Positions 24,239 to 25,696 of a stretch of DNA of 25,696 nt are shown one piece after another. Numbering within the stretch: the stretch's first letter is position 1; the number at the start of each line of letters is the position of its first letter. This stretch comes from an uncultured archaeon. GTDB lineage: Archaea > EX4484-52 > B79-G9. The stretch lies in the NCBI GenBank assembly GCA_965370705.1, contig CBDUVR010000001.1, positions 1-25,696 on the forward strand, in the 5' to 3' direction. The translations under genes were made by a program, and so were the position numbers. The notes beneath the pieces were generated by a model. It ran no database searches. It had not been told where the DNA came from and saw only the letters and a list, made by a program, of their open reading frames with translations.

Positions 24239-24661
24239 CTATGTGACTCCTGTGATATTCACACCATAGTCTATAGCTTCGACGCATATCTTATGTGTAC
24301 CGGATGTCGCTGGCAGGCTGCCTGTGACATTGAAGTCCACCATCGCAGGTATATCGTTCGGTAATGATTTATAGTTTAGTGTTATGATTATCGTCTGGTG
24401 TGAAACGTTGGTCCCCATTATGTTCCCGGGAAATTTAACTTTTCTTGTCATTCTTGCAGGCGGGCCCTGCGCATAAACAATTTGTGACATCTCTTTTATC
24501 TGGTCCACAGCGTCCTGTGCAATTACATTCTCTGAAGTGTGTTTCAGGTCCACTAAAGCGTTGTTCCCTATCAGCATTATGGGCGTCAAAAGGAGTAGTG
24601 AAATGCCAATCACTATGAGATATTCTGTTGAAGCTTGTCCGTTCTTTTTTAATTTTTGCAT
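24239..24661 (-). CDS. Archaeal type IV pilin-like protein (class III signal peptide)
   Basis: MQKLKKNG|QASTEYLIVIGISLLLL has a basic tail, G|Q cleavage site, +5 Glu and a hydrophobic helix. Confidence 0.88.
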   Translation of the reverse strand: MQKLKKNGQASTEYLIVIGISLLLLTPIMLIGNNALVDLKHTSENVIAQDAVDQIKEMSQIVYAQGPPARMTRKVKFPGNIMGTNVSHQTIIITLNYKSLPNDIPAMVDFNVTGSLPATSGTHKICVEAIDYGVNITGVT

Positions 24662-24744
24662 GTATATATTTCTTATATAAAACTACTTTATATTATTATA
24701 TGTATAATTATAATAATTGCTGATTTGTTCGGAAGGTGAAATGT

Positions 24745-25497
24745 TTGGCGCAATGGAAAGAAGCTATGCTGGAGACAGGTATTGACCAAATGCTCGAAAT
24801 TGTGTCAGAAAGGAAAACTATCTCCGCCAGTGAACTTTCAAAGGAACTGTCTGTCCCTGTCGAGACTATTGAGACGTGGGCTGAAATATTGAGCAAAGAA
24901 AACATAATCTCAGTAGAATATAATCGTCTTGGGAAACTCATAATTACCAATAAGATAAAAAACGTAAAAGAGAAAAAAAAGCGTGTTGAGGGGCTGAGAG
25001 ATGATATAGACAGCGAAATCGCCGGTATTGAACAGAATGTCAAAGAAGAATCAAAAATGGTGGATGAAGAACATAAATCCATCGCAAAGTTTGAGGAAGT
25101 GATTAAAAGAGAATACGGTGAGTCACTGAGTCTTGAAAGCAGGTTAAAAGAAATCGACGTGCGTGAAGAGCATTTGAAAAACTTTCTCACGGTAATTGCA
25201 GATGAAGAATCCAAGATTAAAAAAGAGTATATTTCAGCTAATCAGATTATCGAAAATAAAATGAAACAAATAAAAAAAACAGAAGAGAACTTAAAGTCCT
25301 ACGAGATACAGAAGGATAGGTTATTTAAAGATATTGAAATCATAAAAAGACTCTCAAAGGCGATTAATAAAGAGCATCCTGCTGATATGGCAGTCAAGAT
25401 TGAAGAAATTGAGAAAGATATCCTGGAGATTAGAAAACAAAGCAGATCTCTTGACAAGAAATACGGTGTTATCAGAAAGCTGATAACTAAAATATGA
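24745..25497 (+). CDS. N-terminal winged HTH-like domain plus coiled-coil hypothetical protein
   Basis: TGIDQMLEIVSERKTISASELSKELSVPVETIETWAEILSKENIISVEY is wHTH-like and is followed by E/K heptads. GGTGA (24735-24739) plus 5 nt points to TTG 24745; ATG 24766 is an alternative. Confidence 0.75.
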   Translation: MAQWKEAMLETGIDQMLEIVSERKTISASELSKELSVPVETIETWAEILSKENIISVEYNRLGKLIITNKIKNVKEKKKRVEGLRDDIDSEIAGIEQNVKEESKMVDEEHKSIAKFEEVIKREYGESLSLESRLKEIDVREEHLKNFLTVIADEESKIKKEYISANQIIENKMKQIKKTEENLKSYEIQKDRLFKDIEIIKRLSKAINKEHPADMAVKIEEIEKDILEIRKQSRSLDKKYGVIRKLITKI

Positions 25498-25509
25498 TGG
25501 GTGAACAAT

Positions 25510-25602
25510 GTGCCTTGCGGCAAAAAAAGAAAATCTTCAAAGATGAGAAGACATAAACTAAAGAAAAAGAGTAAAAAGATGAGGCATAGGAAGAAAAGAT
25601 AG
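25510..25602 (+). CDS. 30-aa basic protein resembling ribosomal protein bS22/mS38 (AURKAIP1/COX24 domain)
   Basis: Manual translation GTG...TAG gives MPCGKKRKSSKMRRHKLKKKSKKMRHRKKR. GGTGA SD at 25500-25504 with a 5-nt spacer, and a T5 tract after the stop. Gap-free MPxG(K/R)KRKxxKxxxHKxKKxxxxxRHxK pattern. Below the ORF track cutoff. Confidence 0.8.
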   Translation: MPCGKKRKSSKMRRHKLKKKSKKMRHRKKR

Positions 25603-25607
25603 TTTTT
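25603..25607 (+). terminator. Possible oligo-T terminator
   Basis: TTTTT immediately after the TAG of the small basic ORF; archaeal intrinsic terminators are oligo-T. Confidence 0.3.
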
Positions 25608-25696
25608 CGCTGTAGTTAAGTAAAGATGATTCTGTTCTAAGTTTGTTTCTGATGTTTTGTCGATAAGAAGTAATTCTTCGAAACAGGTTATATCTA

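Follow-up and report, generated by a model that had tools for sequence, protein, structure and literature searches.

The window, the whole stretch of 25,696 nucleotides (nt) analysed here, is an entire contig (C1) of a 1.56 Mb archaeal genome bin comprising 306 contigs, 89% complete with 2.5% contamination. An open reading frame (ORF) near its 3' end encodes a 30-residue peptide (12 K, 6 R and 2 H, ~60% K/R) whose sequence places it in the bS22 family of ribosomal proteins; it is probably an archaeal ortholog of a bacterial form of bS22. The locus contains the following features.

24239-24661, minus strand: pilin-like protein of 140 amino acids (aa), starting MQKLKKNGQASTEYLIVIGISLLLL
24736-25497, plus strand: gene for a 253-aa protein with an N-terminal helix-turn-helix (HTH)-like region and a coiled coil, ending 12 nt 5' of the microprotein start
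25500-25504, plus strand: Shine-Dalgarno (SD) sequence GGTGA, 5 nt 5' of the GTG start
25510-25602, plus strand: coding sequence of the bS22-type microprotein, 30 codons, GTG start, TAG stop (25600-25602)
25603-25607, plus strand: run of five T (T5) directly 3' of the stop, candidate archaeal-type termination signal

The peptide is exactly the one proposed in an earlier inspection of the letters of the window (the sequence-only reading), which also claimed an SD, a suitable spacing and a terminator. The GGTGA pairs with UCACC at the 16S 3' end, ...GGATCACCTCCT (as found in the same-genus genome G003), so that the SD and its spacing stand; the terminator is reduced to the T5 tract, as a scan for hairpin terminators after the microprotein stop found none. 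Oligo-T is the usual archaeal kind of termination signal, and it also follows the stop in most orthologs. A second GTG at 25501 would lengthen the microprotein by three residues, but we place the start at 25510 because orthologs have an ATG directly before the proline codon. Since the gene for the 253-aa protein (for which Pfam gave weak HTH matches only) ends so close to the microprotein start, the two genes are probably carried on one transcript.

The microprotein ORF is a real protein-coding gene under selection. In a six-frame search 23 of 40 relatives had a full-length match uninterrupted by stops, the frames being 28-58 codons long, and with a first profile full-length orthologs were found in 25 of the 42 genomes of the window's own phylum. 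The peptide is conserved among these orthologs while the flanking DNA diverges, and the orthologs in families f1, f3, f4, f5 and f6 retain GGTG(A)/GGAGG at a constant spacing, while their other upstream DNA differs. Nei-Gojobori estimates gave pS values of 0.6-1.1, pN values of 0.03-0.20 and pN/pS ratios of 0.05-0.25, with synonymous sites near saturation. DNA carrying the gene was found in marine sediment, cold seep and brine metagenomes. Only one of eight archaeal versions of the sequence occurs among ~15 billion predicted proteins, and there without a name; gene callers thus almost never report the archaeal gene, as had been supposed from the sequence of the window.

The codon at the start position is ATG, GTG or ATT, depending on the genus. 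In the second and third phyla (see below) most copies lack an SD; a TATA-like stretch rich in A and T lies ~20-30 nt upstream instead, an arrangement that resembles archaeal leaderless genes. The ATT codon occurs in one genus of the window's own family and in family f5 (L011:1445-1534, L013:1501-1590 on the minus strand, L020:1501-1590 and L080). These frames sit behind an SD-like purine run, which in L020 is GGTGA at the 5-nt spacing of the window, and in the case of a 35-codon open frame none of ATG, GTG and TTG occurs from the preceding stop up to the proline codon. AUU is therefore a candidate start codon in archaea, judged from these loci.

When the window peptide was searched against all PDB sequences with phmmer (E up to 10), the sole matches were chains 8fmw_V (E 0.0026), the bS22 of Borrelia; 9i5v_10 (E 0.017), labelled an AURKAIP1/COX24 domain protein; and 7jil_5 (E 0.04), the bS22 of Flavobacterium johnsoniae. 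All three alignments run without gaps from residue 1 to the end. The gapless alignment to bS22 that the sequence-only reading had drawn thus holds over the full length of three solved chains, and the Bacteroidota and Borrelia sequences that it quoted are correct, matching 7jil_5 and 8fmw_V. A profile built from 27 archaeal sequences reached the three bS22 chains at E 5.8e-8, 6e-8 and 4.6e-7 (hmmsearch), and also a mitochondrial mS38 chain, 8a22_BC, at E 0.07. Gapless BLOSUM62 scores of the peptide against the three solved chains were 89-97, compared with means of 38-42 (standard deviation ~6) for composition-preserving shuffles. The corresponding z-scores are 9.0-9.4, and none of 3000 shuffles reached the real score, so K/R composition, the trivial explanation that had been feared for the match, does not account for it.

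The window peptide has the N-terminal motif M-P-x-G-(K/R)-K-R-K together with H15-K16 and R25-H26. Across the 27 archaeal sequences P2, H15, K16 and K19 are invariant, while C3, G4, K6, R7, K8, K11 and K18 are conserved in at least 90%; these residues recur in 8fmw_V, 9i5v_10 and 7jil_5. The MPxG, HK and RH positions, without whose conservation in archaeal homologs the original proposal would have fallen, are conserved in homologs from four archaeal phyla. In the closest ESM Atlas cluster, whose members are 31 aa long, PF08213 is present in 26% of the proteins. An AlphaFold2 model made from the archaeal alignment is a single helix spanning residues 4-29, with a predicted local distance difference test score (pLDDT) of 89, which is compatible with bS22 and not specific to it.

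How does the peptide compare with known occupants of this part of the ribosome? The bacterial proteins that it most resembles are those of the MPxGKKRK type, such as Flavobacterium johnsoniae Fjoh_1533 (PDB 7JIL) and the proteins of Borrelia burgdorferi (PDB 8FMW), Porphyromonas gingivalis and PDB 9I5V. It is of equal length (28-31 aa, with 28-33 aa taken as the defining range), aligns without gaps throughout at ~60% identity, and is identical in the M-P-C/S/N-G-K/R-K-R-K start, K11, H15-K16, K18-K19 and R25-H26. The copies of Borrelia and other spirochaetes are likewise GTG-started and missed by annotation. The differences lie in an archaeal signature, K-M-R/K-x-H-K-L-K-K ... K-M-R-H, where bacteria have K-I-A-T-H-K-R-K-K-R-L-R-K-N-R-H, and in the host, an archaeon with archaeal rRNA, so that the distribution is not bacteria-specific; this affects the 'b' of the name bS22 and not the homology. 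Actinobacterial bS22 and mS38 (AURKAIP1/COX24, PF08213) are likewise small basic helices, placed by the literature in the same small-subunit pocket, and mS38 8a22_BC has a K-H-K-L-R/K-K-R-R-K core in common with the archaeal profile. However, their N-terminus is MGSV... rather than MPCG, mS38 is much longer, and the window peptide has no significant PF08213 match.

In solved bacterial ribosomes bS22 lies between helices h44 and h45, beside the decoding centre. Its basic C-terminus contacts 23S H68-H70, forming an extra bridge that may modulate h44, and the protein is non-essential and easily lost from the 30S subunit. The same pocket is used in Pyrococcus by eL41/eS32, which touches modified bases near the P site through its N-terminus; eL41/eS32 fills it in other archaea and eukaryotes, and mS38 in mitochondria. 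A common name for bS22, mS38 and eL41 has been proposed in the literature. The papers that we searched report bS22 solely from mycobacteria, Cutibacterium, Bacteroidia and Borrelia, and no report of an archaeal bS22 was found. When 122 archaeal genomes were surveyed, none of 21 ribosomal proteins specific to bacteria turned up.

We consider it probable that the microprotein is the archaeal ortholog of MPxGKKRK-type bS22, with the h44/h45 pocket as its predicted site. The peptide would be translated from the GTG start positioned by the GGTGA, probably from the transcript shared with the 253-aa gene. By homology with the bacterial protein it would then sit in the rRNA pocket between 16S h44 and h45, with h27 nearby, beside the decoding centre and the P site, and would extend its basic C-terminus to the large subunit, providing an extra intersubunit contact. 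The same pocket is expected because the columns conserved across the two domains are the MPxG-KKRK stretch and the HK and RH pairs; that the archaeal peptide binds the ribosome and occupies the pocket is what we infer from solved relatives. Ribosomal proteins with the 'b' prefix are treated as absent from Archaea, and a conserved branch in four phyla would extend the bS22 family across domains. It also predicts what the first ribosome structure from a small-genome archaeon that carries the gene should show.

The six-frame check over archaeal genomes that had been suggested with the original proposal showed that the gene recurs in four archaeal phyla. Besides the 25 of 42 genomes in the window's own phylum, it was found in 22 of 360 genomes from outside that phylum. 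In three further phyla, counted over genomes at least 85% complete and with related genomes not being independent samples, it is present in 26 of 29 (second phylum), 60 of 198 (third) and 1 of 42 (fourth). Presence in the third phylum tracks families, with 8/8, 15/15, 7/7 and 18/21 in some and 0/41, 0/16, 0/14 and 0/13 in others. Among the 360 genomes outside the window's own phylum, the gene was not found in the other sampled archaeal families, including eL41-rich groups. We use 'DPANN-like' with reference to genome sizes of 0.5-2.4 Mb.

Two divergent peptide variants beginning MPNL were also noticed, at L165:1530-1613 on the minus strand (genome G091) and L146:1501-1563 (G021). One has 28 aa, and the one in the window's own phylum ends after 21 codons. 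More diverged forms may be hidden in genomes scored as lacking the gene.

Several observations count against the assignment of the microprotein to bS22. Scans of the peptide with Pfam and NCBIfam gave no match. Both libraries, however, also miss the solved Borrelia- and Bacteroidota-type bS22, so this negative carries no weight. The same is true of the DUF1713/PF08213 comparison that the sequence-only reading had recommended: it was run and gave no match for the peptide, but is uninformative, as the model misses solved bS22 too. One archaeal copy gives a weak in-register PF08213 signal, at E 0.63, and a six-frame search of the window genome with PF05162 and PF08213 gave no match, with weak controls. 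Standard gene callers and profile libraries miss the gene almost completely. Neither the bS22-type gene nor a long-form eL41 was found in 138 of the 198 third-phylum genomes (e.g. G270-G290), and the same holds for five high-quality genomes of the window's own phylum, even at E up to 5. In two same-genus relatives of the holder G017 the upstream gene is retained and no microprotein ORF follows it in a protein-level search; one of these, G024, has no microprotein match anywhere at E up to 5. The gene is thus dispensable, and its either/or pattern with eL41 is incomplete. Such loss is in keeping with bacteria, where bS22 is non-essential and loosely attached. Lastly, the peptide is so short and so basic that any RNA or DNA could be its target.

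These points lead to the alternative that survives best, in which the microprotein is related to bS22 but is a polycationic peptide with another job in archaea (general RNA or DNA binding, ribosome assembly or a role linked to its neighbours) and not a stoichiometric occupant of the h44/h45 site. Even members of one genus can differ in having the gene, many relatives lack both it and eL41, so that their pocket may hold nothing at all, and the genomic context varies, from the HTH/coiled-coil gene to tRNA genes, a phosphoesterase gene or TFB. Yet the residues conserved between archaea and bacteria comprise the whole N-terminal hook, H15-K16 and R25-H26, the same columns as in the ribosome-bound proteins, and patchiness is what would be expected of a true bS22, given how readily bacteria dispense with it. 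We regard another job as unlikely.

We then considered whether the microprotein could be a strongly diverged archaeal eL41/eS32 whose likeness to bS22 arose convergently because both fit one pocket. Archaeal eL41/eS32 (37 aa in Pyrococcus, seen in the 30S structures of P. abyssi and P. furiosus) is also a short basic helix, and its long form has an N-terminal hook that lies between h27, h44 and h45; the proposal of a common name for bS22, mS38 and eL41 points the same way. For comparison we recovered long-form archaeal eL41 from other archaea, namely the Thermococcales-type form of 37 aa together with relatives in which an RWKW core is invariant. No sequence relationship to the window peptide was detectable. 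The gapless score against the 37-aa eL41 had a z of 0.3, equal to the shuffle expectation; hhalign gave a probability of 0.65% between the archaeal bS22 and archaeal eL41 profiles; neither PF05162 nor the long-form eL41 profile matched the peptide, which lacks the R-W-K-W core; and no eL41 chain appeared in the PDB searches with the peptide or the archaeal profile, even at E 10. The MPCG, HK and RH positions, in contrast, are identical to those of bacterial bS22. A diverged eL41 is therefore very improbable.

The long-form eL41 profile matched 103 of 251 archaeal genomes, and with this sensitivity it found no eL41 in the window genome, a check that had been called for at the outset, nor in any of 41 genomes of its phylum or 198 of the third phylum. 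No convincing eL41 was found in any holder of the bS22-type gene, the lone overlap being a weak partial match inside a 117-codon frame; no genome convincingly has both, and many have neither. The distribution of L41e in Archaea has been described as 'uncertain', and an archaeal bS22 would explain this for part of the small-genome archaea.

At the eL41 loci of family f31 (L167, L168, L176 and L177) the long-form frame, IKRSSRRWKKKGRMRWKW..., has GGTGA and, 4 nt on, ATA, with no canonical start ahead of an internal methionine. Either the conserved N-terminal extension appears to begin at a non-canonical codon, or only a short form would be made.

Is the gene native to its host? In the window genome and its relatives the archaeal SSU and LSU (small- and large-subunit) rRNA models match best, and a tRNA lies in the spacer. 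The same-genus genome G007 has the same gene order as the window, that is, a pilin-like gene, the 253-aa gene and an identical microprotein. In family f3 (genome G017) the microprotein gene is preceded by that of a 250-aa protein with a C-terminus alignable to the 253-aa protein (E 3e-5). In other phyla the gene lies twice on a contig with an archaeal 16S-23S operon, once in the single-contig genome G254 and once on contig C2 of G449. It adjoins a TFB gene in G079, and in G038 shares a contig with a Hef-type helicase-nuclease. A bacterial chimera is excluded by the gene order kept within the genus, the archaeal rRNA and the placement on rRNA-operon contigs elsewhere; the taxonomy of the contig, for which a chimeric end had been a worry, is archaeal.

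The archaeal copies also carry marks of their own. L17 is found in 29 of 34 archaeal sequences and in 1 of 72 bacterial ones, M24 in 23/34 and 0/72, and R/K13 in 33/34 and 11/72. A maximum-likelihood tree, built on 31 alignment columns and one that cannot be rooted or dated, has 2 changes of domain label, as opposed to ~32 with shuffled labels, and a tree with all archaeal copies together is not rejected (approximately unbiased (AU) test, p 0.66), scoring even better than the free search. The Cys-type bS22 motif is very common in bacteria, with Bacteroidota, Spirochaetota, Ignavibacteriota, Omnitrophota, Planctomycetota and others among the matches listed. That this lineage alone recently gained the gene from bacteria, or that a bacterial or chimeric contig was binned into an archaeal metagenome-assembled genome, might be suggested by the position of the gene 94 nt from the contig end, by the fragmentation and contamination of the assembly and by the abundance of MPxGKKRK-type bS22 in the sediment-sharing Bacteroidota, Spirochaetota, Omnitrophota and Ignavibacteriota (again among the matches listed), but it is already contradicted, and scarcely credible, in view of the identical gene and order in same-genus genomes, the four phyla and two rRNA-operon contigs, the archaeal-specific residues, the tree, and the TATA-like stretch without SD upstream of most copies in the second and third phyla.

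The data instead fit a single, old branch in archaea, whether its descent was vertical or it spread between small-genome archaea, and do not fit repeated recent imports. The sequence-only reading had left a choice between horizontal transfer and an unrecognised archaeal branch; the second is preferred by these results and a recent transfer is not, though the gene may have crossed between the domains in ancient times. A more far-reaching scenario, in which bS22/mS38 is an ancient h44/h45-pocket occupant of both Bacteria and Archaea (from before their split or by very early exchange), kept in small-genome (DPANN-like) archaea and replaced by eL41/eS32 in most other archaea and in eukaryotes, is one that we can offer only tentatively and think rather doubtful. 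Were it true, bS22/mS38 would not be a bacterial invention and would deserve a universal 'u' name, and the ribosomes of these archaea would be the first known with a protein otherwise classed as bacteria-specific.

One bacterial metagenome-assembled genome, 'bacterium isolate AUK226', has a bS22 (L093:669-761) with the archaeal-type H-K-L-K-K-R-R-K core, and this copy groups with the archaeal ones in the free tree. Its contig encodes a NamZ muramidase and an isocitrate/isopropylmalate dehydrogenase, and a calcineurin-like phosphoesterase gene adjoins the bS22 gene, as in the archaeal loci L154 and L157.

The neighbourhood of the gene offers some further observations. Downstream of the microprotein in G007 (L003:1708-3089) lie a convergent gene for a TtuA-like tRNA 2-thiolation protein and then KsgA/Dim1 (RrnaAD, E 6e-31), a region that the window contig stops short of. 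KsgA/Dim1 dimethylates the adenine pair in h45, a helix that helps to form the pocket bound by bS22 and eL41. Its proximity to the microprotein gene may be coincidence. In family f6, tRNA-Pro is encoded 20-40 nt downstream of the microprotein gene, on the same strand (L143:1404-1685; also L017, L019 and L144), and in one genome of this family the microprotein gene stands between tRNA-Val and tRNA-Pro, which suggests that it is transcribed together with the tRNAs. On the window itself, an antisense ORF at 25299-25694 was rejected as spurious, since its long form is not preserved at the same-genus locus, which instead has the convergent TtuA-like gene further downstream. The 140-aa protein had no Pfam match at E up to 1, and its start resembles an archaeal class III (pilin-type) signal peptide.
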